IMG/VR virus record: IMGVR_UViG_2531839147_000004
DNA from: a virus
Lineage: Duplodnaviria > Heunggongvirae > Uroviricota > Caudoviricetes
Strand: one strand, 5' to 3'
DNA length: 16,877 bases
The notes under the pieces were generated by a model. That model was not told where the DNA came from, ran no database searches, and saw only the letters and a list, made by a program, of their open reading frames with translations. This document shows positions 3,204-14,234 of the stretch, piece by piece (the first letter of the stretch is position 1; each line of letters opens with the position of its first letter). Made by a program: the position numbers and the translations under genes.

Positions 3204-5207
3204 ATGATTATGAGTGAAAATGATACAACCCCAAAGAAGTCTACAAGCCAGATTAACAAAGCGGTATTCTTTACATCTGCTTTGCTAATTTTCCTTCTTG
3301 TCGCCTTTGCCGCCGTATTCCCGGATGTCGCCGACAAAAATTTTAAACTACTTCAGCAACAAATCTTCACGAATGCCAGCTGGTTCTACATACTTGCTGT
3401 GGCCCTGATTTTACTGAGCGTCACGTTCCTTGGACTCTCACGTTACGGTGATATAAAGCTGGGCCCAGACCATGCGCAGCCTGATTTCAGCTACCACTCC
3501 TGGTTCGCGATGCTTTTTTCGGCAGGGATGGGGATCGGCCTGATGTTCTTTGGCGTTGCCGAACCTGTGATGCATTATCTTTCGCCACCTGTCGGCACTC
3601 CAGAGACCGTTGCGGCAGCGAAGGAAGCCATGCGCCTGACGTTCTTCCACTGGGGTCTGCACGCATGGGCAATTTATGCCATCGTGGCGCTGATTCTGGC
3701 CTTTTTCAGTTACCGTCACGGTCTGCCTTTAACGCTGCGTTCTGCGCTCTATCCCATTATCGGCGATCGCATTTACGGGCCTATAGGCCACGCGGTTGAT
3801 ATCTTCGCCGTGATAGGCACTGTCTTTGGCGTTGCAACATCGCTGGGTTACGGTGTATTGCAGGTGAATGCCGGTTTGAACCATCTTTTCGGCGTGCCCA
3901 TCAATGAAACGGTACAGGTCATTTTGATCGTGGTCATCACGGGGTTAGCGACGATTTCGGTGGTGTCCGGCCTGGACAAGGGAATACGCATCCTGTCTGA
4001 GCTTAATCTGGGCCTGGCGGTGTTGCTCCTGGCGCTGGTCTTGTGCCTGGGTCCCACTGTGCTTCTGCTGAAGTCATTTGTGGAAAATACGGGTGGTTAT
4101 CTGTCGGAACTGGTGAGTAAAACGTTCAACCTTTACGCGTATGAACCCAAGTCGAGCAACTGGCTGGGGGGCTGGACATTATTATACTGGGGATGGTGGC
4201 TTTCATGGTCGCCGTTTGTAGGTATGTTCATTGCACGCGTTTCCCGCGGCAGGACAATTCGTGAGTTCGTGACTGGCGTGTTGTTTGTTCCCGCCGGCTT
4301 TACGCTCATGTGGATGACGGTGTTTGGAAACAGCGCCATCTATCTCATCATGAACCAGGGCGCCACTGACCTCGCCAATACCGTTCAGCAGGATGTTGCG
4401 CTTGCCCTGTTTAATTTCCTGGAGCATTTCCCGTTCTCTTCCGTGCTGTCATTCATTGCAATGGCGATGGTCATCGTCTTCTTTGTAACGTCTGCTGATT
4501 CGGGGGCAATGGTTGTGGATACTCTGGCATCAGGTGGGGTGGCAAACACGCCCGTCTGGCAGCGAATTTTCTGGGCATCGCTCATGGGCGTTGTTGCTAT
4601 TGCCCTGCTGATCGCAGGGGGGCTGAGTGCGTTGCAAACCGTAACGATAGCGAGTGCATTGCCCTTCTCAGTTATCTTATTAATATCCATATACGGACTG
4701 TTAAAAGCCCTGCGTCGGGATTTGACCAAGCGTGAAAGCCTTAGCATGGCGACTATTGCTCCTACGGCTGCACGTAACCCAATTCCCTGGCAGAGAAGGT
4801 TACGCAATATCGCGTATTTGCCGAAGCGCTCTCTTGTGAAACGTTTTATGGACGACATTATCCAACCCGCCATGACGCTGGTTCAGGAGGAACTTAACAA
4901 GCAGGGAACGATAAGCCACATCAGTGACGCCGCCGAGGATCGTATTCGCCTTGAAGTCGATTTGGGCAACGAGCTGAATTATATATATGAAGTGAGGCTT
5001 CGCGGGTATAACTCACCGACCTTCGCGCTCGCTGCGCTGGATAATGATGAGCAGCAGAGTGAACAACATCGATATTATCGCGCTGAAGTCTATCTCAAAG
5101 AGGGCGGCCAAAATTATGATGTAATGGGCTGGAATCAGGAACAGCTGATTAATGACATACTGGACCAGTACGAAAAACACCTGCACTTCCTGCATCTGGT
5201 TCGTTAA
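3204..5207 (+). CDS. BCCT-family transporter, BetT-like (choline / glycine-betaine type) with long cytoplasmic C-terminal tail
   Basis: 667 aa; BCCT tryptophan signature GGWTLLYWGWWLSWSPF; overall layout and C-terminal tail (...DILDQYEKHLHFLHL) parallel E. coli BetT as I recall it. Confidence 0.9.
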   Translation: MIMSENDTTPKKSTSQINKAVFFTSALLIFLLVAFAAVFPDVADKNFKLLQQQIFTNASWFYILAVALILLSVTFLGLSRYGDIKLGPDHAQPDFSYHSWFAMLFSAGMGIGLMFFGVAEPVMHYLSPPVGTPETVAAAKEAMRLTFFHWGLHAWAIYAIVALILAFFSYRHGLPLTLRSALYPIIGDRIYGPIGHAVDIFAVIGTVFGVATSLGYGVLQVNAGLNHLFGVPINETVQVILIVVITGLATISVVSGLDKGIRILSELNLGLAVLLLALVLCLGPTVLLLKSFVENTGGYLSELVSKTFNLYAYEPKSSNWLGGWTLLYWGWWLSWSPFVGMFIARVSRGRTIREFVTGVLFVPAGFTLMWMTVFGNSAIYLIMNQGATDLANTVQQDVALALFNFLEHFPFSSVLSFIAMAMVIVFFVTSADSGAMVVDTLASGGVANTPVWQRIFWASLMGVVAIALLIAGGLSALQTVTIASALPFSVILLISIYGLLKALRRDLTKRESLSMATIAPTAARNPIPWQRRLRNIAYLPKRSLVKRFMDDIIQPAMTLVQEELNKQGTISHISDAAEDRIRLEVDLGNELNYIYEVRLRGYNSPTFALAALDNDEQQSEQHRYYRAEVYLKEGGQNYDVMGWNQEQLINDILDQYEKHLHFLHLVR

Positions 5208-5215
5208 CAGCAACA

Positions 5216-5243
5216 TGCCGCCACAGAGGCGGCATTTATTTAT
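5216..5243 (+). terminator. Rho-independent terminator after BCCT gene
   Basis: Stem TGCCGCC / GGCGGCA (7 bp), loop ACAGA, followed by TTTATTTAT. Confidence 0.55.
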
Positions 5244-5386
5244 CCCGGCTGCAATATGAGGGAATGCAGAATGATTTCACGCTGGAAATGGATGCTGAAG
5301 CAGACATTTAAAAACTATGGTTCAGGGCAACGTTATTCGCAATTGTCGCAATAATAACGGCCCTTTTATCAATTCTTTTTAAATCA

Positions 5387-6547
5387 ATGATACCTGAGTC
5401 GGTTTCCGTGAAGGTTGGTGCGGAAGCAGTCGATAACATTCTGAACATACTGGCATCGAGTATGCTGGCAGTGACCACATTTTCGCTGAGCATCATGGTC
5501 ACAGCCTACGGTTCAGCCACTACTAATGTGACTCCCAGAGCTACTCGTTTAGTTGTTGAAGACGTCACCACACAAAATGTACTGGCCACCTTCATCGGTT
5601 CTTTTCTCTTCAGTCTGGTAGGGATTATTGCCCTCAATATGGGAGCTTATGGAGAAAGGGGGAGAGTCATTTTATTCATTGTAACACTGGTTGTCATTGC
5701 CTTAATCCTCATCACATTGCTTCGCTGGATACAGCATTTGACCTCTCTGGGGAGGGTTGGTGAGACAACGGCAAAAGTAGAACAGGCGGCCATCGAAACA
5801 TTTATTGCGAGAGCAAGAAATCCCTGTCTCGGCGGATATCCATGGCTTGAGAACAATGAACAGCCGAAAGGAACGGTTGCAGTTTATCCGAAAAAGATTG
5901 GCTATGTTGAATATGTTGATATGGTGAAACTCAGCAAGCTGCTGACCAATGATCCCCGTCATGTATACCTCGTGGCGCAGCCGGGCAGTTTCATACATCC
6001 GTCCACGCCAGTTTTGTACCTGAGTCAGGGCCAGGAGTCATCAATCAGCACCGATTTACTTGAGACGATTATTGTCTCGGATGTACGTTCATTTGCTCAG
6101 GACCCCCGATTTTGTCTTAGCGTCATGGCCGAAATAGCCTGCCGAGCCCTTTCCCCCGCAGTGAACGATCCTGGAACCGCCATTGATGTCATTGGCAGAG
6201 GTGTACGTATACTTTCCGCTTACGCGCAGAATAAATCTGATGAAATAGAAGTGAAATATCCTTCTGTACATGTTGCACCACTTCAGAATAACGATCTACT
6301 TGAAGACTTTTTCTCACCTGTTGCGCGCGATGGTGCCAGTATGAGGGAAATTCAGATAAGGGTACTTAAAGGACTGTCGATGCTGAGTAAGGGTTGGCCT
6401 GGAATTTTTGCTGAAGCCGCACAAACCCTAGCATTTGAAACATTAGAGCATGCTACTCGTGCTGACCATATAGATTCTGACAGATATCTAATAAAATCAA
6501 TTTATTATAATTTATTTAGTGGCGAAGATTCTAATAAAAAACCATAG
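5387..6547 (+). CDS. Membrane protein of unknown function (DUF2254-like), N-terminus probably disrupted by a frameshift
   Basis: Three predicted TM helices then a soluble C-terminal domain. A well-placed SD+ATG at 5271 opens a 27-codon ORF in another frame; the main frame is open from 5312 and encodes a further TM helix before the first ATG. Confidence 0.55.
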   Translation: MIPESVSVKVGAEAVDNILNILASSMLAVTTFSLSIMVTAYGSATTNVTPRATRLVVEDVTTQNVLATFIGSFLFSLVGIIALNMGAYGERGRVILFIVTLVVIALILITLLRWIQHLTSLGRVGETTAKVEQAAIETFIARARNPCLGGYPWLENNEQPKGTVAVYPKKIGYVEYVDMVKLSKLLTNDPRHVYLVAQPGSFIHPSTPVLYLSQGQESSISTDLLETIIVSDVRSFAQDPRFCLSVMAEIACRALSPAVNDPGTAIDVIGRGVRILSAYAQNKSDEIEVKYPSVHVAPLQNNDLLEDFFSPVARDGASMREIQIRVLKGLSMLSKGWPGIFAEAAQTLAFETLEHATRADHIDSDRYLIKSIYYNLFSGEDSNKKP

Positions 6548-6609
6548 TTGCGGAGCAAGCGATACGGTTGTTGGCAAGTCAAGGGCAAAGCATTCGCGTG
6601 AGAGTGGGC

Positions 6610-6633
6610 GTCTGCTTTGTGCCAGAAGCGGAC
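6610..6633. repeat. Dyad element copy B: GTCTGC-N12-GCGGAC
   Basis: GTCTGC TTTGTGCCAGAA GCGGAC in the convergent intergenic region between the DUF2254-like gene and the LysR gene. Confidence 0.5.
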
Positions 6634-6677
6634 ATACGTAACTTATGATACGCATCGCCAATCATCCGTTTCAAACA

Positions 6678-7559
6678 TCAACGCGGAAACGTTTTAAGAA
6701 TGTAATCCCGAACATAGGCGGTTCGGCTGTTATTAGCCGTCCTTTTGTTCCAGACCAGATAAAGATGATTAGTCGGAGCGAGGTCTGCAGGTGTCACTGA
6801 AATCAGGCGACCACTTTTCAGGTCATTGTCACAGTGATAATCCGGCAGCACTGTCCACCCGTGGCCGTCACAGACCAAGTCGCGGATAATACGTAAATCC
6901 GGAATGGTGAATGTAGCCTGCATCTCAGGGGCTCTCTGAAACATGGAGGCCCAGAGCGCTCTAATCAGTGGCAACTCTTCGTCATAAGCAATCAGCGGTA
7001 ATGAGGCAAGCGTTTCAGCACCAGGTTCTGATCCGATGATCTCTGACATGGCGGGAGCATGAACAAGGAGCATGCGTTCAGTCAGTAGATGTGCATAGCC
7101 GTACAGACGGTCATCAGGCATAGATGCGGTAACAGCGAGATCGGCGCTCCCGTCATGCAAAAGGGAATAAATACGTTGCTTATTGCCGGTATGAAAGCGT
7201 AGGCGATACCCCTCCTTCATTAGTGGAGCCATTACTGTCCCAAGCCGGGAATGAATAAAATCTGGCGGTCCTGCCAGATTAATTGTTCCCCCACGTACAG
7301 AGCCTGACCGGAAAGAGGACAGCTTTTCTTCCAGACCATCAATGAAGGGTGAAACTGAGCGGGCAAGCTCATCCGCAGCTTCGGTTGCCGTCACGCCTCT
7401 GGCCTGCCTGATAAACAGACGCTTACCAACCAGAGTCTCAAGAGACTGGATATGCTGTGACGCCGCGGGCTGAGTGATGCCCAGTAGTTCTGCCGCCTTT
7501 GAAAAGGAGCCAGAGCGATAGGCCTCAAGAAACGTTCGCAGATGGCTCAGATGGCTCAT
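6678..7559 (-). CDS. LysR-family transcriptional regulator
   Basis: 293 aa; N-terminal LysR HTH (LRTFLEAYRSGSFSKAAELLGITQPAASQHIQSLE); start ATG overlaps the stop of the upstream ChaC-like gene (ATGA at 7556-7559). Confidence 0.9.
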   Translation of the reverse strand: MSHLSHLRTFLEAYRSGSFSKAAELLGITQPAASQHIQSLETLVGKRLFIRQARGVTATEAADELARSVSPFIDGLEEKLSSFRSGSVRGGTINLAGPPDFIHSRLGTVMAPLMKEGYRLRFHTGNKQRIYSLLHDGSADLAVTASMPDDRLYGYAHLLTERMLLVHAPAMSEIIGSEPGAETLASLPLIAYDEELPLIRALWASMFQRAPEMQATFTIPDLRIIRDLVCDGHGWTVLPDYHCDNDLKSGRLISVTPADLAPTNHLYLVWNKRTANNSRTAYVRDYILKTFPR

Positions 7560-8248
7560 AGTGAAGCGCCTCGCTGATGAAGTTTATCGTTACAGGGAGC
7601 CTCATGCAGAGCAAGGGCCAGTTCACTCACGTAATCATCCCGTATTCCCAACGCACCCAGAGTGGCCTGCAGTTTCCATACATAATCTGCATTCGTGCCA
7701 ATGTCTCCACGGGCAGATGCGATGCTCAACGCTACGGTCGCTGTAAGATTGTCCTGTTCATAATGCGGATGCAGTCTGTCTGATACGAAAGCCAGCGCCT
7801 GAATTTCCTTACCGTTTCCTAGCGAAACGTCTGCCCAGACCGGACGGTAAAGACCGGTTATCATCTCGCGCGTCCAGACAATTTCCAGCTCATTAATAAG
7901 AGTCGATTCCGGCAGTCTGAACGCAATACCTTCGGTAATTCCACCTTCGTCGAGCGATAACATCCTGCCGGGGACATCAGGAGTCGCTCGTCCGGATATC
8001 AAACGAATGCAGAAACTGCGCTGCCATCCTTTCAGACGGGCCCGTTGCATTTCTTCAATCGCCAGCACGGGATTCCACATCAATGACCCGTAGGCAAATA
8101 TCCAGACAGGAGCACCCGTCGGGCGCTCCTCCAGAGTAGAGTTCATTGATGCGCGTATTTTTTCAGCGTCCCAGAGCATATTCGCCGGGAGCAGCGCTTC
8201 ATGCACCCTGACAAATGTGCCATTAAGCATATTTTCACGGGTAAGCAT
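7556..8248 (-). CDS. ChaC-like gamma-glutamylcyclotransferase (glutathione-specific GGCT family)
   Basis: 230 aa; hallmark VWIFAYGSLMWNP motif and overall co-linearity with E. coli ChaC as I recall it; SD GGGAGG upstream. Confidence 0.85.
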   Translation of the reverse strand: MLTRENMLNGTFVRVHEALLPANMLWDAEKIRASMNSTLEERPTGAPVWIFAYGSLMWNPVLAIEEMQRARLKGWQRSFCIRLISGRATPDVPGRMLSLDEGGITEGIAFRLPESTLINELEIVWTREMITGLYRPVWADVSLGNGKEIQALAFVSDRLHPHYEQDNLTATVALSIASARGDIGTNADYVWKLQATLGALGIRDDYVSELALALHEAPCNDKLHQRGASL

Positions 8249-8259
8249 ATAACCTCCCT

Positions 8260-9459
8260 TTACTGGCCTACGATTTTAACCTGTTGAAATTTACGACTGT
8301 GGCTGCGACGGATTTGTGCAAGCAGCAACAGCAGGCCGAGCAGAGAAACAATCGCACCGCTGATACCGGTATACACGATACCGGCGTGGCTTATAGTAAT
8401 GCTGCCCAGTACTGATCCCAGCGCTATACCTGAGTTGAAGCCCGCAATATTCAGGCCGGCAGCAACACCATGCGCATGAGGAGCATGTTGCTCAGCGACA
8501 CCAATCAGACGGGCCTGCAGTGCCGGCACTGCGGCAAATGTCACCATACCCAGCAGCGCAACCAGAATGCCCATGCTCACCGGTGAGGATGACAGCAGCC
8601 ACATACCAAGCACGACAACAACAATGCCGCTAATGATGAGTATATTGGCACGATTAACCCCCATGCTGTCGGTAAGTTTCCCACCAAGAATATTACCTAC
8701 CGCAGCTGTAATACCGTAAACCAGCATAAACAGACTCACCGTTGCTCCGGTAACCCCTGTCACCTGCGTCAGAATAGGTGCGATAAAGGTGTAATCCGTA
8801 AACGAGCCTGCATACGCCAGCACCGTAACCAGCGCGCCGGCCAGCAACTTACGGTTAAACAGCATGCCGATATTCTGCATTGCTGAGTCACTATGTTCAC
8901 CGGGCACGCTGCGTACGGGATCTTTCATACCGAACAACAGTCCAAGGAATCCGAACGCGCCAAAAGCGGCAATAGCGCCGAGAACTGGACGCCATGAGAC
9001 CACCCCCCCCAACCATGTACTCAGCGGTACGCCGATTGCCATCGCCAGAGTAAAGCCACCAAATACCACAGCCACCGCTCTGCCTGCTTTACCCGGTCCA
9101 GCAAGACGAGCTGCGGTACTGGATGCCGCAGCCAGAAACAGGCCGTGTCCCAGACCAGCAATGAACCGCGCTAACAGGAGCTGAGGTAATGTGGCTGCAA
9201 ACGCGGCCGCCAGACTACCGGCAGTAAACACAACGGCAGTTGTAAGCATTACATTTTTCCGGCTCCAGCTTGCTGTCAGCGCAGACAGTACGGGTGCCGC
9301 GAACGTTGCCCCCAGTGCATAGGTTGTAACCGCTGCCCCGGTCTGCTCCACACCCACACACAACCCCTGAGCCATAACGTCTGTCAGCCCAATGGGGACA
9401 AATTCCGCGAGTCCGAGCGCAAAGGCACTGATAGTAAACACATAAATAACAAATGGCAT
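8260..9459 (-). CDS. MFS transporter (12-TM, YdhP / drug-sugar efflux-like)
   Basis: 399 aa, highly hydrophobic with repeated TM segments; N-terminal LGLAEFVPIGL motif typical of this MFS subgroup; SD CAGGAG before ATG; first gene of the MFS-ChaC-LysR operon. Confidence 0.85.
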   Translation of the reverse strand: MPFVIYVFTISAFALGLAEFVPIGLTDVMAQGLCVGVEQTGAAVTTYALGATFAAPVLSALTASWSRKNVMLTTAVVFTAGSLAAAFAATLPQLLLARFIAGLGHGLFLAAASSTAARLAGPGKAGRAVAVVFGGFTLAMAIGVPLSTWLGGVVSWRPVLGAIAAFGAFGFLGLLFGMKDPVRSVPGEHSDSAMQNIGMLFNRKLLAGALVTVLAYAGSFTDYTFIAPILTQVTGVTGATVSLFMLVYGITAAVGNILGGKLTDSMGVNRANILIISGIVVVVLGMWLLSSSPVSMGILVALLGMVTFAAVPALQARLIGVAEQHAPHAHGVAAGLNIAGFNSGIALGSVLGSITISHAGIVYTGISGAIVSLLGLLLLLAQIRRSHSRKFQQVKIVGQ

Positions 9460-9675
9460 GACTGGCTCCTGATTTAAGTAAGGAGTGCAGTCTGATTTAG
9501 AAAAACAGATAAATAAAATAATGTAAACTTCAGGCGGGATAAAATTATTTATATCTAAGGCAAAGATTCAATATTCCCACAGCACACAGAAGTTTTCTGT
9601 CTTCAGGGAGAGGAGCTTCGAAAGTTCAGACGAAAAATTCCTGCGGCCCCTTTAAGAGTCAGTTGGCCGGGTTTG

Positions 9676-9699
9676 GTCCGCTCCTCGCTCAAAGCGGAC
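9676..9699. repeat. Dyad element copy C: GTCCGC-N12-GCGGAC (perfect arms)
   Basis: GTCCGC TCCTCGCTCAAA GCGGAC about 220 bp upstream of the MFS operon start. Confidence 0.5.
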
Positions 9700-9878
9700 T
9701 AGAAGGTTAGCTTGCGTCGGACTTGGCGTATTTAAAGAAGTGCTGGTGGTGACTGGTTGTTGTGTTCCATTTCTACAGAACAAAATCACAGAAACTATAC
9801 CCAATAGTTATATTGAATCAATGATGAGACAGCCTCATATTTATCAGAACTGGTGTACGTCCAATACAGGAGGTTGTC

Positions 9879-9968
9879 GTGCTGGTTCTCAAATGTGCGC
9901 TAGCTATTGCGGCTGTAATGGCAATTTATTGTCTTGCTGTTGTTCTTATGGAGCGGCTTTCTGATTGA
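9879..9968 (+). CDS. Candidate small hydrophobic peptide (29 aa, MLVLKCALAIAAVMAIYCLAVVLMERLSD)
   Basis: Consensus SD AGGAGG (9868-9873) exactly 5 nt upstream of GTG 9879; single predicted TM helix. No recognised family; speculative. Confidence 0.3.
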   Translation: MLVLKCALAIAAVMAIYCLAVVLMERLSD

Positions 9969-10110
9969 TTACATACTGGCTAGAAAAAAGGTGTTACCTT
10001 GGTTTATCTTTGTCCGGCAAGGTGCGCTCATTAATCTTAAGTAAATTTATTGCTCAAGTATTCAGATTACTTCTTATGGTTGAAGTCTCCTGTCAATGTA
10101 GAACCAATAT

Positions 10111-10152
10111 ATTTACAAAAATGAGACCCGTCGGGGATAGCCCTGCCGGGTC
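10111..10152 (-). terminator. Rho-independent terminator of the YeaR-like gene
   Basis: 12-bp stem (10125-10136 / 10141-10152, one mismatch, loop ATAG); on the minus-strand transcript it is followed by UUUUU. Confidence 0.55.
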
Positions 10153-10182
10153 TGACTGTTAAAGCATTTTTAATATGATCAT

Positions 10183-10521
10183 CTATTTTTTGGTGCTATA
10201 GACTTTTTCGCCCGAGAAGTCTGGAGCGACCCAAAAGTTAATATTAAACTGAGCATCATCGCTTAGTTCAACACGGTGCCAGTATTGTGGTGGGCTTGTT
10301 GCAAAAGCGCCAGCATTAATGACTACTTTTATCTCCGGTTCAGTAGCATTCTCATCAGTAAAACCATAATATGTTACAGTGCCTTCCATTACGCACAACT
10401 GCCCAAAAACACCTGCTGCTGTATTATGATGTGTTAATAACGCTGAAGGTACGTTCTCTTTTGTGAAGAACGGAGTTGAGCGTTTGATTACCCAATCTTT
10501 AGGAATTCTCTTGTGTGTCAT
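10183..10521 (-). CDS. YeaR-like DUF1971 protein (nitrosative-stress regulon type)
   Basis: Motifs KRSTPFF and FATSPPQYWHRVE fit the YeaR/TehB-C-terminal cupin-like family. Start reassigned to the internal Met (ATG 10521, SD GAGGTGG) because the ORF-track start at 10545 lies inside the upstream operator palindrome. Confidence 0.7.
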   Translation of the reverse strand: MTHKRIPKDWVIKRSTPFFTKENVPSALLTHHNTAAGVFGQLCVMEGTVTYYGFTDENATEPEIKVVINAGAFATSPPQYWHRVELSDDAQFNINFWVAPDFSGEKVYSTKK

Positions 10522-10536
10522 AACCACCTCATCAAA

Positions 10537-10559
10537 AACATGCATTATAAATGCGTGTT
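10537..10559 (-). promoter_or_regulatory. NsrR-type operator (11-1-11 palindrome) overlapping a TATAAT -10 element
   Basis: AACATGCATTA T AAATGCGTGTT, 9 of 11 arm positions symmetric; resembles the E. coli NsrR consensus as I recall it. TATAAT on the gene strand sits at the palindrome centre (10545-10550). Confidence 0.5.
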
Positions 10560-11334
10560 TTTGAGGGTTATGTCAAGCTGTTATGAAACACATAATTGAT
10601 ATGTTGATTAGAGGAGAAGATATAATAAATATGGTTGTTTTTCGTATAACTATTTGTTTTACTTTTAGTTTATGCATTCTGTGTGTTAGGAATAAGTTAT
10701 TAAAGTTTAATCAAAAAATCTCGATGTAGTCCACATAGATTATTGTTACTGAACCTTATTGTGTGTATTAGTTGTGTTCTGAAATTTCAGCTTAATTATT
10801 TATGATGTATTTTTTAACGATAAATATTTTCCCAGGATACCTTTACTGTGTATATAAATAAATTATATACACATAAATAATGTAAAGGCGTCCTTTTAGA
10901 TATATCTTATCAAATGTTAATGACTTGAGTGGGAAATATGATTCCAGCAACTTATCATGTGGCTACTTTATAAAAATAATGCCCATATAAAACAACAAGC
11001 GAAAAGGATTACGGATAAAAAAGGAGCGAGATGTGCGAACTTGTTATTTTCCATGTTTAACCACCTTAAATAATTGATGATGACGGGATGATTGCATCTG
11101 TAATGCTTTTATTGAAATGTTATGATAAAAAAGAACTTTTGCATAACATTAAAATGTAATTTATCTAATCGTTTTTAATAATAAATGTCGTATTTCTATC
11201 CTTGTACCAGCTATTTGATATGTAGTGTTTGTTCATGCTATGTGGGGCTTTACACCATAGCCAGTTTATTTATACTTTATTCGTCAGCCTGAACAACTGG
11301 CATCTGCTGCGCTGCGCCATCGAGAGATTGAGAA

Positions 11335-11934
11335 ATGGCGCATATACAACTGGTCAAACAAACTTCTTCTGGTTTACTTCTCCCGGCGACGCCGGAGAGT
11401 TGCGATTTTCTGCATCAAATCAAAATAGGTGAGTGGATACACGCAGACTTTAAGCGTGTGCGTAACTACGCATTCCACAAGCGTTTTTTCAAACTCCTGC
11501 AACTGGGATTCGATTACTGGACTCCGGTCGGTGGGGCGATCACGCCTCGCGAACGAGAACTGCTGTCTGGTTTCGTTGATTACCTGTGCGAATCAGTTGG
11601 TCGGGAACACACGCCAGCCCTGAGTGATGCCGCAGAGCAATACCTTAACACCGTTGCGACTCGTAGAACCCGGGATACGGCGTTGCTAAAGTCGTTTGAG
11701 GCTTTCCGCGAGTGGGTAACCATTCAGGCCGGATTTTACACCGAGCATATTTATCCGGACGGTAGCCGTGGGCGTCGGGCAAAATCCATCGCTTTTGCGA
11801 ATATGGACGAAGTCGAGTTTCAGCAGGTTTATAAATCTGTACTGAATGTGCTGTGGAACTGGATTCTGTTTCGTAAATTCTCCTCTCAGGAGGAAGTTGA
11901 AAATGTGGCCGCACAACTACTGGAGTTTGCGTAA
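11335..11934 (+). CDS. Lambdoid nin-region protein (DUF1367-like), function unknown
   Basis: 199-aa ORF; stop overlaps next start (TAATG at 11932-11936); family assignment from memory only. Confidence 0.5.
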   Translation: MAHIQLVKQTSSGLLLPATPESCDFLHQIKIGEWIHADFKRVRNYAFHKRFFKLLQLGFDYWTPVGGAITPRERELLSGFVDYLCESVGREHTPALSDAAEQYLNTVATRRTRDTALLKSFEAFREWVTIQAGFYTEHIYPDGSRGRRAKSIAFANMDEVEFQQVYKSVLNVLWNWILFRKFSSQEEVENVAAQLLEFA

Positions 11935-12839: not shown

Positions 12840-12860
12840 TCGTAAAAAAACCGCTTAATG
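12840..12860 (+). terminator. Candidate tR'-like terminator downstream of the Q-like gene
   Basis: A7 - ACCGC TTAAT GCGGT - T7; short GC stem flanked by A and T runs. Confidence 0.4.
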
Positions 12861-13189
12861 CGGTTTTTTTACGTCAGGAAAGCAGGGGAGAATGCTGCTA
12901 GTTGGGCAACTGGTCTTTCTGCTCCAAATTATAACAGAGACCAGTTATAGTTTCGGTGCTGTGTTTTTTTACAATATTGTGATAACACATTGCTGGCGGG
13001 AGTTTTGATATTTCTTGGCAGGGGCTGATGATGCGTTATCCTGATGTCGTCAACTCATATAAAATGAGATGAGAGATCATTGCAGGGTGGTTTGTAATTC
13101 GCTGTTTAGCGGGACAATATGTTGTCTGATACAAGACACCCGACGCCTCAGATTACTATAATAAAGACGAAGCATCCTTTGTATTGACC

Positions 13190-13215: not shown

Positions 13216-13805
13216 GGACTGGTTTATTGTATGCCAAATGATTATTAAAAAGGTTGTGTTAATAACAAAATCCGAAATAATATGCCTGCATATTTTTATC
13301 TTGCTTATATTCTGCATATTGTGCATAGCAGGCTCATCCCTGCAATCAAAACTGTATGATGAGTTATTTTTTTTTCCTTTTTTCCAGTCATCTGATGATG
13401 ACCTGCTTCTTTTTAATCCGGATCGACATCAGTTTTTTAAGATAATTCCTGCGAGTTATATGCATAAATACCACAAACTCCGCATTTTATGTGGTTGGGA
13501 GTTGCCGGGCGCGCAGTGAGTTTGCTAAGAAAACTCCTGCATGGTGAATCCCCCTGTGCGGTGGGGTGATACCATTAACCTTTTCTGTCGCCGACAGGTA
13601 TCACGAACATTTTGTTCACCGGGAGGCACCCGGCACCATGCACTTCAATAGATTCTCTCCACATTATGGATATTCTTTCAGAATATCCCACGCAGACTTT
13701 GTGTAAATGTTAACAAATGTGCGTTTTATTTGATCTGATTCGCTGTTTGAGCGTCCAAAACAACGGTATATATAATCCTTTACTATATGACATATGTGAG
13801 GAAAA

Positions 13806-14234
13806 ATGGGTTTTCGTAGCGCATCAATTCTTACGTTGATTATTAGTGGGATTATTATCGGGTGCACTGATGCTGTATCGACAAATTATCATGACCGTAC
13901 ATCATATTACTCCGATAAAGCAATAGAGACACAGTATGTGAGTTCATCTGAACGTACTTCTGATGTTAGTGAGGATATCCGTCTGTATGCCCATCAAATC
14001 AAGAGCGCCATCGAAAAACAGTTCGGGGATGCGAGTAAGTATTCAGGAAAAGAGTGTACACTGAGAATGCATATGGCCCCGAATGGCCTTCTACTGGAGG
14101 TTAAAAGAGAAAGTGGAGACCTCGATTTATGTCGTGAAGCGATGAATGCGATAAAGAATGCTGATATACCTGCCCCCCCTTCGCCGGAAGTATATAAAGT
14201 ATTTCAAAATGGGGTGCTGGATTTTAAACCCTGA
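13806..14234 (+). CDS. Outer-membrane lipoprotein with TolA C-terminal (domain III)-like domain, paralog 1
   Basis: Signal peptide with lipobox IIGC then Thr; C-terminal ~85 aa align by eye to TolA domain III (QIKSAIE..., GKECTLRM, APNGLLL, GD..LC, IPAPPSPEVYKVF, ending VLDFKP); SD GAGGA before ATG; AT-rich. Confidence 0.7.
   Translation: MGFRSASILTLIISGIIIGCTDAVSTNYHDRTSYYSDKAIETQYVSSSERTSDVSEDIRLYAHQIKSAIEKQFGDASKYSGKECTLRMHMAPNGLLLEVKRESGDLDLCREAMNAIKNADIPAPPSPEVYKVFQNGVLDFKP

Follow-up and report, generated by a model that had tools for sequence, protein, structure and literature searches.

A DUF1971 cargo gene of Rac-type Escherichia coli prophages with a predicted NsrR operator over its promoter

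The stretch of DNA analyzed here, referred to as the window, is a tailed-phage record of 16,877 nucleotides (IMG/VR record IMGVR_UViG_2531839147_000004), which is 100% identical to sequences of Escherichia coli strain 165 (NZ_CP020509) and Shigella flexneri. We investigated a small gene on its minus strand, encoding a protein of the DUF1971 family, together with the 23-bp inverted repeat upstream of it, which resembles the operators of NsrR, the Rrf2-family iron-sulfur repressor that senses nitric oxide (NO). Our collective results show that the gene is prophage cargo, and suggest that it is probably silenced by the NsrR protein of the host and released by NO. Our reading of the sequence found all of the window elements described in an initial annotation at the positions it had given them. 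The locus comprises the following features:

10183-10521, minus strand: coding sequence of the DUF1971 gene (339 nt; 112 amino acids plus stop codon), with a product identical to RefSeq WP_000149055.1
10183-10545, minus strand: longest open reading frame (ORF; 120 codons), with its start ATG inside the palindrome
10524-10530, minus strand: Shine-Dalgarno (SD) sequence GAGGTGG, read from the sequence, with its GAGG core 5 nt 5' of the ATG at 10521
10543-10545, minus strand: upstream in-frame ATG (start of the longest ORF), in the AATGCAT core of the right NsrR half-site and overlapping the -10 region
10537-10559: predicted NsrR-type operator, an 11-1-11 inverted repeat reading AACACGCATTT-A-TAATGCATGTT on the gene strand, recognized by its position weight matrix (PWM) score and its positional conservation
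10544-10553, minus strand: predicted -10 region inside the operator, either CATTTA (10553-10548) or TATAAT (10549-10544)
10571-10576, minus strand: consensus -35 hexamer TTGACA, 11 nt upstream of the operator, recognized by its sequence and by the geometry shared with orthologs
10532-10564: longer quasi-palindrome around the operator, with 15-nt arms (10532-10546 and 10550-10564; 14 of 15 positions complementary) and a 3-nt center
10116-10153, minus strand: intrinsic-terminator-like hairpin AGACCCG...CGGGTCT followed by CATTTTTG, beginning 30 nt past the stop codon, found by RNA folding
10522-11334: AT-rich spacer (813 bp, 30% GC) separating the DUF1971 gene from the phage genes DUF1367-DUF1364-DUF1133 (nin/Q-like), which are divergent from it

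On the minus strand these elements are ordered as TTGACA (10576-10571), 11 nt, AACACGCATTTATAATGCATGTT (10559-10537), TTTGAT, GAGGTGG (10530-10524), TT and the ATG at 10521; on the plus strand the palindrome reads AACATGCATTATAAATGCGTGTT, and 9 of its 11 arm positions are complementary. The promoter was placed by homology with orthologs and the terminator by RNA folding, since simple scans gave neither. The terminator hairpin was missed by the scan because of its internal loop; the fold of 10105-10182 on the minus strand reaches -19.4 kcal/mol (z = -2.1). CATTTA lies 17 bp from TTGACA, at the position homologous to the TATTTT or CATATT of the orthologs, and by this homology may be the working -10 hexamer. 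The initial annotation had centered the palindrome on the -10 element: both candidate hexamers do lie inside the box, but TATAAT stands 21 bp from the -35 and the homologous hexamer is CATTTA. Whichever hexamer is used, the -10 of the predicted promoter is inside the NsrR box, and the transcription start is predicted at about 10541-10537, downstream of the ATG at 10545. Such an arrangement, in which the box begins 11 nt past TTGACA and holds both -10 candidates, fits repression. An Rfam search of the gene and spacer region gave no match.

The initial annotation had also moved the start codon from 10545, which indeed falls inside the palindrome, to the internal Met at 10521, for which the GAGGTGG at 10530-10524 provides a proper SD. 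To place the start codon and the operator in an evolutionary context, we used a set of 80 orthologous loci (75-100% identity; numbered with the prefix L), obtained by a scan of one genome per species and comprising 632 kb of fetched DNA. All 80 orthologs begin with M-[S/T]-H-x-R-I-P from the Met equivalent to 10521, with an SD (GGAGG or AAGGAG) ahead of it at the position matching that of the window; read upstream in frame from this Met, 53 of them reach a stop codon without passing an ATG, GTG or TTG. Moreover, residue 1 of the Vibrio fischeri protein in PDB 3DL3 aligns to residue 1 of the 112-amino-acid form. The N-terminal alignment proposed as a check thus supports 10521 and not the upstream start, and the reassignment was right, though RefSeq (WP_000149055.1) already uses the 112-amino-acid form. 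The ATG at 10545 is not a start codon, lying as it does upstream of the predicted transcription start; it is present in every allele because it is part of the conserved AATGCAT core of the NsrR half-site. Annotations of the gene differ: the GenBank phage record ON470614 (L082, 6997-7362) has the long form, starting inside the operator, while PGAP (the NCBI Prokaryotic Genome Annotation Pipeline; L081, 11284-11622, RefSeq) has a form of 112-113 amino acids, under the product name "DUF1971 domain-containing protein" or "TehB family protein".

The protein matches the DUF1971 profile PF09313 over its whole length (positions 1-80 of 80; 91.9 bits against a cutoff of 23.1, E = 2.6e-26) and is a small metal-binding beta-barrel. 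Its sole NCBIfam match, to the TehB model, reaches 48.8 bits against a cutoff of 303 and covers only profile positions 11-106 of 289; the protein has no methyltransferase domain and does not belong to the TehB methyltransferases, and the RefSeq name "TehB family protein" used in some genomes is misleading. His32 (THHNT) and His82 (WHRVE), in the 112-amino-acid numbering, are present and align with those of YeaR and Haemophilus influenzae TehB. The description of the gene as YeaR-like in the initial annotation is correct at the level of the Pfam family (DUF1971) but does not stand as a statement of orthology, as the protein is 41% identical to E. coli YeaR compared with 77-82% for the Salmonella/Kluyvera/Vibrio clade: up to 82% to Kluyvera, about 80% to PDB 3DL3 from V. 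fischeri, and 77% over 112 amino acids, without gaps, to the product of the Salmonella arizonae gene that follows nhaB-dsbB (gene order nhaB-dsbB-DUF1971 in L079). In a neighbor-joining tree (no bootstrap), YeaR forms a long-branch outgroup and the sister group of the E. coli alleles is that of Kluyvera/Leclercia. On these comparisons the window gene is best classified as a paralog of yeaR, not as yeaR itself, belonging to the subfamily of the Salmonella dsbB-adjacent gene and V. fischeri 3DL3. From the gene order of Salmonella LT2 we take this dsbB-adjacent gene to be STM1808, which Karlinsey and colleagues, in 2012, reportedly found to be NsrR-regulated, to bind zinc through His32 and His82 and to be needed under nitrosative stress.

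The palindrome that had been noticed as resembling NsrR operators was scored with a palindromized PWM, built from the 11-1-11 NsrR sites of E. coli CFT073 (Mehta et al., 2015; PMC5320621 Table 4; 27 sites, 26 distinct). The matrix was adopted because a search with the strict consensus AAGATGCATTTNAAATGCATCTT gave no match within 3 mismatches in the window. The 11-1-11 palindrome at 10537-10559 scores 20.7 bits, more than 20 of the 26 published training sites scored leave-one-out (median, 18.1 bits), and so came out high in the matrix comparison that the initial annotation had suggested. The next best position on both strands of the window reaches 12.0 bits, 8.7 bits below the operator, and only 5 positions among 1.58 million in shuffled spacers attained 20.7 bits (about 0.003 per spacer). 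The two halves contribute unequally: the right half (on the other strand, AACATGCATTA) reaches 12.1 bits, at the 75th percentile of published half-sites, and the left half (AACACGCATTT) scores 8.4 bits, being weaker because it carries C at position 5, where 42 of the 52 published half-sites have T and 0 of 52 have C. For comparison, the weaker half of the validated hmp site scores 5.0 bits. A 9-of-11 palindrome of the 11-1-11 type is not significant by itself, as the window holds 10 of them and 27% of spacer shuffles contain one; arms of 15 nt with 14 complementary positions, in turn, occurred in 0 of 1000 shuffles. The DUF1971 gene is not in the CFT073 NsrR table of chromatin immunoprecipitation sequencing (PMC5320621 Table 4).

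The box is retained at the same place in orthologs. Of 53 enterobacterial loci, 52 have it, with 20-30 bits and at a distance of 38-50 nt from the ATG, in Kluyvera, Leclercia, Enterobacter, Pantoea, Pseudescherichia, Silvania, Buttiauxella, Citrobacter, Klebsiella, Raoultella, Salmonella, Yokenella, Phytobacter and Shigella; the lone exception, L008, has a 1-nt deletion in the box. In one Photobacterium locus the ATG is preceded, at 66 nt, by a box that scores at least 20 bits. Across the 632 kb, 58 positions score at least 20 bits, and 53 of them are immediately upstream of the DUF1971 gene; the other five, in Neptunomonas and Parendozoicomonas, are beside DUF1971-containing operons or an Rrf2 regulator gene. 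The layout is constant as well, with a -35 hexamer, 11-12 nt and the box: the -35 reads TTTACA in the Kluyvera group, TTGACG or TTGACC in Klebsiella and Raoultella, and TTGCCT in Citrobacter, and box positions 7-12 (TATTTT, CATATT or TATATT) stand 17-18 bp from it. The window shares this layout but has the consensus TTGACA. At the sequence level the conservation of the box is a strong phylogenetic footprint, and given the conserved layout, the box is therefore expected to cover both the -10 hexamer and the start point.

Within E. coli, the operator itself is polymorphic (window 10553-10559 and the equivalents in L082-L084 and L086-L118). Box positions 3-5 read CAC (20.7 bits), GGT (26.6 bits) or GAT (27.8-28.6 bits), and all E. 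coli prophage alleles keep an NsrR-like box of 17.7-28.6 bits, with invariant TTGACA, spacing and flanks; there is further variation in the stretch from the box to the SD. The CAC allele of the window is the weakest of the common alleles, the others scoring 25.7-28.6 bits and most enterobacterial orthologs 24-30 bits, yet it is the commonest: 17 of 35 viral contigs carry it, and 287 of 458 genomes have a gene sequence of the window type (at least 99% identity).

The gene belongs to a Rac-type lambdoid prophage, an aspect that was absent from the initial annotation. The prophage carries sieB, ydaF, a cI/cro-like pair, ydaT and DUF977, and further on DUF1367-DUF1364-DUF1133, a holin, a tail fiber gene, tfaR and pinR, followed past pinR by ydfK, ynaM and then the host genes uspF and ompN. 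The DUF1971 gene is always divergent from the DUF1367 gene across the same AT-rich spacer, as a fixed unit in Rac-type prophages; its other neighbor varies, being the BCCT/DUF2254/LysR/GGCT/MFS block of the window, KilA-N with hok, or QueH. It was found in 34 IMG/VR contigs, in three sequenced, induced E. coli phages (vB_EcoS-666R9, -673R7 and -613R10) and in 453 of 5426 complete E. coli genomes (8%). Sensitive blastn found it in no other complete E. coli genome, every match being at least 95% identical, and in K-12 umuC directly follows dsbB, with no chromosomal copy of this gene; the gene is therefore prophage-only in E. coli. A search of a plasmid collection gave no match to it. The window gene is a self-contained cargo gene ("moron") of a Rac-type prophage of E. 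coli and Shigella.

The NO connection has a second line of context outside the enterobacteria. A norW gene (NADH:flavorubredoxin reductase; NCBIfam equivalog, 533 bits against a cutoff of 392) lies upstream of the DUF1971 ortholog in 20 marine gammaproteobacterial loci from Vibrionaceae, Shewanella, Agarivorans and an Oceanospirillales genome (L029, L034, L038, L042, L046, L048, L052, L056, L057, L060, L062-L064, L067, L068, L071, L075, L077, L078 and L080). Most of these loci have the end of norW within about 130 nt of the ortholog, the distance in Aliivibrio being about 830 nt, and in two of the 20 an S-adenosylmethionine (SAM)-dependent methyltransferase gene lies in between. This linkage is independent context evidence for a role in NO detoxification, by a second route that does not involve NsrR.

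Considering the site, its position and its context, we regard it as likely that promoter occlusion by NsrR, relieved by NO, drives this prophage-borne STM1808-type DUF1971 gene. The reading as an NO-responsive gene that the initial annotation had put forward is supported to this extent. The repeat at 10537-10559 would be an operator for the NsrR of the host, and bound NsrR would cover the -10 hexamer and the transcription start, keeping RNA polymerase off the promoter. Once NO damages the iron-sulfur cluster, the repressor would leave and the gene would be transcribed from about 10541-10537, giving an mRNA with a short leader, on which translation would begin at the ATG at 10521. If STM1808 and the norW-linked orthologs of Vibrionaceae are a guide, the protein would then help growth under nitrosative stress.

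Several observations weigh against this interpretation. With respect to the promoter, the perfect TATAAT is 21 bp from TTGACA, CATTTA is a poor match to a -10 hexamer, and a consensus promoter scan with spacers of 16-18 bp called no promoter at the operator region, so that promoter strength and the start site are uncertain. With respect to the site, the operator agrees with the strict consensus (AAGATGCATTT-N-AAATGCATCTT) at 18 of 22 specified positions, with 4 mismatches; the C at left-half position 5 is absent from all published half-sites, and the window allele is the weakest of all enterobacterial copies. Moreover, the sites used to train the matrix had themselves been selected with a matrix.

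The palindrome extends beyond what NsrR needs. With one C·T mismatch, it continues from the 15-nt arms to CCCTC (10566-10562), which pairs with the GAGG of the SD, and the fold of this extended hairpin reaches -15.9 kcal/mol (z = -5.1). The outer arms differ by lineage, being CCCTCAAA/TTTGAGGG in the E. coli prophages (window 10526-10570), GGCATTTAT/ATAAATGCC in Citrobacter (L024-L049) and GACAGATCAA/TTTATCTGTC in Raoultella (L069). Double changes restore the outer pairs in some alleles, and the extension of 8-11 nt in Citrobacter is an independent one. Among the 12 E. coli alleles the covariation signal is weak, with three pairs changing on both sides and 34 of 500 shuffles attaining the covariation score. 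The hairpin cannot form in the mRNA of the gene itself because its left arm lies upstream of the predicted start. Extended arms can arise neutrally, by template-switch mutation in quasi-palindromes; such neutral perfection, insulation against read-through translation and cruciform formation are candidate explanations.

The main rival to occlusion by NsrR is a decayed left half-site. The box would then be inherited, but its CAC allele, in place of GGT or GAT at positions 3-5, would bind NsrR poorly and leave the gene leaky or constitutive in lysogens. The score of 20.7 bits, lower than those of the other common alleles and of most enterobacterial orthologs, speaks for this, as does a base at position 5 that no published half-site has; nonetheless, 20 of the 26 published sites score lower, the half-site on the right is strong, and one half of the bona fide hmp site is weaker than the left half here. 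According to the passage of PMC5320621 that cites Partridge (2009), a single 11-bp half-site is reported to be sufficient for NsrR binding. In addition, the window allele is the commonest one, both among the viral contigs and by gene type among the genomes. We consider its decay unlikely.

A further explanation is that the palindrome serves mainly something other than NsrR, namely a regulator (phage-encoded, or the neighboring LysR), a cruciform, or an RNA hairpin masking the SD in read-through transcripts, and that the resemblance to NsrR sites is secondary. The repeat does exceed the 23 bp required by NsrR, running with a stable fold to the pairing of CCCTC with GAGG, and other alleles and the Citrobacter orthologs retain extended arms, some through double changes. 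However, it is the core that fits the NsrR matrix and is conserved at chromosomal, non-phage orthologs of many genera, while the extensions differ or are absent. The covariation is weak, neutral template switching could account for the extended arms, and the left arm lies between the -35 and the -10, outside the mRNA of this promoter. Most prophages with the DUF1971 gene have no LysR gene, and the neighboring LysR regulator and a phage repressor were both rejected as the binder, since the box is conserved where those genes are absent. Altogether, we hold a principal role outside NsrR to be very improbable. The most skeptical possibility, a chance palindrome in an AT-rich promoter with the true start at 10545, could point to the frequency of 9-of-11 palindromes in shuffled spacers and to the long ORF annotated in ON470614. 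It is effectively refuted by the matrix score and the ortholog results: the 15-nt arms and the cross-genus conservation are at odds with chance, all 80 orthologs and PDB 3DL3 start at the downstream Met, 53 of the 80 having no alternative upstream start, and 10545 has no SD ahead of it and sits in the -10.

Beyond occlusion by NsrR itself, we can speculate, rather doubtfully, that the Rac-type prophage re-supplies E. coli with an STM1808-type gene already wired to the NO sensor, as a form of lysogenic conversion that raises fitness under nitrosative stress; the operator alleles would then represent adaptive tuning of the basal level of expression, and the pairing of CCCTC with the SD would act as an insulator that lets only transcripts from the NsrR promoter be translated. 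If the proposed regulation is true, about 8% of E. coli strains, and Shigella, have one more NO-inducible gene in their NsrR regulon, invisible to studies of K-12 and CFT073 and delivered by a prophage that is still inducible as phage. It would illustrate cleanly how phage cargo can be plugged into a stress regulon of the host, and its natural operator alleles would offer a series of graded strength for the study of NsrR specificity. For annotation, the start codon is fixed against the long form of GenBank phage records, and caution is needed with the labels "TehB family" and "YeaR". The NsrR boxes of enterics and the norW linkage in Vibrionaceae add context evidence that this DUF1971 subfamily acts in NO stress.

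The link to NsrR, which the initial annotation had drawn by way of yeaR, is known for the gene family: Rodionov et al. (2005) predicted that a "tehB homologue" belongs to the NsrR regulon of Photobacterium profundum and of all enterobacteria (PMC1274295), and in a passage of PMC7527575 that cites Karlinsey (2012), STM1808 is listed in the NsrR regulon and linked to virulence. Gilberthorpe et al. (2007) observed no effect of NsrR on tehB, located just downstream of tehA (PMC2884951); we suspect that this tehB is a different gene from the homolog predicted by Rodionov et al. (2005). Full-text searches returned nothing on this locus, and neither its place in a prophage nor its operator alleles nor its limitation to about 8% of E. 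coli genomes seems to have been described in the searchable literature.

Some further observations were made at the orthologous loci. A Fur-box-like sequence, GATAATGAGATTTATTATC, matching at 14-17 of 19 positions, is present in 20 orthologs from Kluyvera, Leclercia, Pantoea, Enterobacter, Silvania, Buttiauxella and two Photobacterium. The loci concerned are in L002-L023, with the sequence about 84 nt ahead of the ATG, together with L054 and L072. It is fixed just upstream of the -35 in 18 enterobacterial loci and lies 94-100 nt from the ATG in the two Photobacterium, and these 20 sites are among only 73 such matches in 1.4 million positions. This Kluyvera-type Fur box is not in the window, the best match of the E. 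coli prophage copy being 12 of 19. A second NsrR-like site at 10617-10639 was rejected as AT-rich noise, with 12 bits only and coinciding with that weak Fur-box match. In Neptunomonas, boxes of the form AATATGCAT...ATGCATATT (18-24 bits; L073 at 2966, 5034 and 5069, L065 at 1962 and 1997) flank a gene of an Rrf2-family regulator (L073, 4469-4906, minus strand) divergent from sufB, and a box is also found upstream of an iron-sulfur protein gene that is followed by the DUF1971 gene. A separate SAM-methyltransferase gene stands directly upstream of DUF1971 in L062 (3410-3979), L066 (3402-3977) and L078 (about 3360-3896), the pair corresponding, in split form, to the fused TehB of the H. influenzae type. 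Ahead of the pair in L066 lie two tandem NsrR-like boxes (3315 and 3339; 21.8 and 21.5 bits).

The window itself holds other elements. The cargo block at 3204-9459, between DUF977 and the DUF1971 gene, encodes a BCCT transporter, a DUF2254 protein, a LysR regulator, a gamma-glutamylcyclotransferase and an MFS transporter; of these genes, at least that of the MFS transporter is present in only 5 of 34 related viral contigs. Between the MFS and DUF1971 genes there is an unannotated stretch of 720 bp (9460-10182), about 300 bp of which (9676-9983) is dispersed in 1735 of 5426 E. coli genomes and is unannotated in the records listed; the ORFs between these two genes, and the ORF at 11229-11432, have no Pfam match. 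The AT-rich spacer contains a perfect 11-nt inverted repeat, TGTGTATATAA-TTTAT-TTATATACACA (10847-10873), about 330 nt upstream of the DUF1971 start. Past the DUF1133 (Q-like) gene, by 78 nt, there is a 15-3-15 palindrome, CGTAAAAAAACCGCTTAATGCGGTTTTTTTACG (12841-12873), which resembles a bidirectional intrinsic terminator. Downstream of both, 13509-13695 on the plus strand matches the gammaproteobacterial small RNA STnc100 in Rfam (86.6 bits against a gathering score of 47), ending about 110 nt before a TolA-like ORF at 13806.

Set against known systems, the window gene is closest in kind to the DUF1971 gene that follows dsbB in Salmonella, with which it shares the subfamily, the length, His32 and His82, and a box directly upstream that overlaps the -10; the Salmonella copy, however, is core chromosomal beside dsbB while the window copy is prophage cargo, and the window box stands 38 nt from the ATG, not 50, and is more diverged in sequence. 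E. coli yeaR-yoaG, which is regulated by NsrR and NarL, belongs to the same Pfam family and has an NsrR 11-1-11 box (AAATGGTATTTAAAATGCAAATT) over an AT-rich -10-like hexamer, but it differs in identity (41%) and locus, and the window gene has a consensus -35, because of which an activator such as NarL need not be invoked. It also has no yoaG (DUF1869) partner on its 3' side, where a terminator-like hairpin is found instead. The V. fischeri "TehB" DUF1971 protein (PDB 3DL3) is about 80% identical over its full length and has the same start. Unlike the window gene, the norW-linked orthologs of Vibrionaceae lie downstream of norW and have no NsrR box of at least 16 bits in the fetched flanks, and are probably controlled through the nor operon rather than by NsrR. 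The N-terminal domain of the H. influenzae-type TehB methyltransferase (PDB 3M70) is likewise DUF1971, but the window protein is without the methyltransferase domain. As in other lambdoid prophage morons, the gene has its own predicted promoter and terminator, is carried by phage genomes between phage modules, has a GC content below that of its surroundings (41% in the coding sequence, 30% in the spacer) and keeps a fixed place beside the nin/Q module with variable neighbors; it differs from them in being linked to a predicted site for a stress repressor of the host, NsrR, and not to phage regulators.

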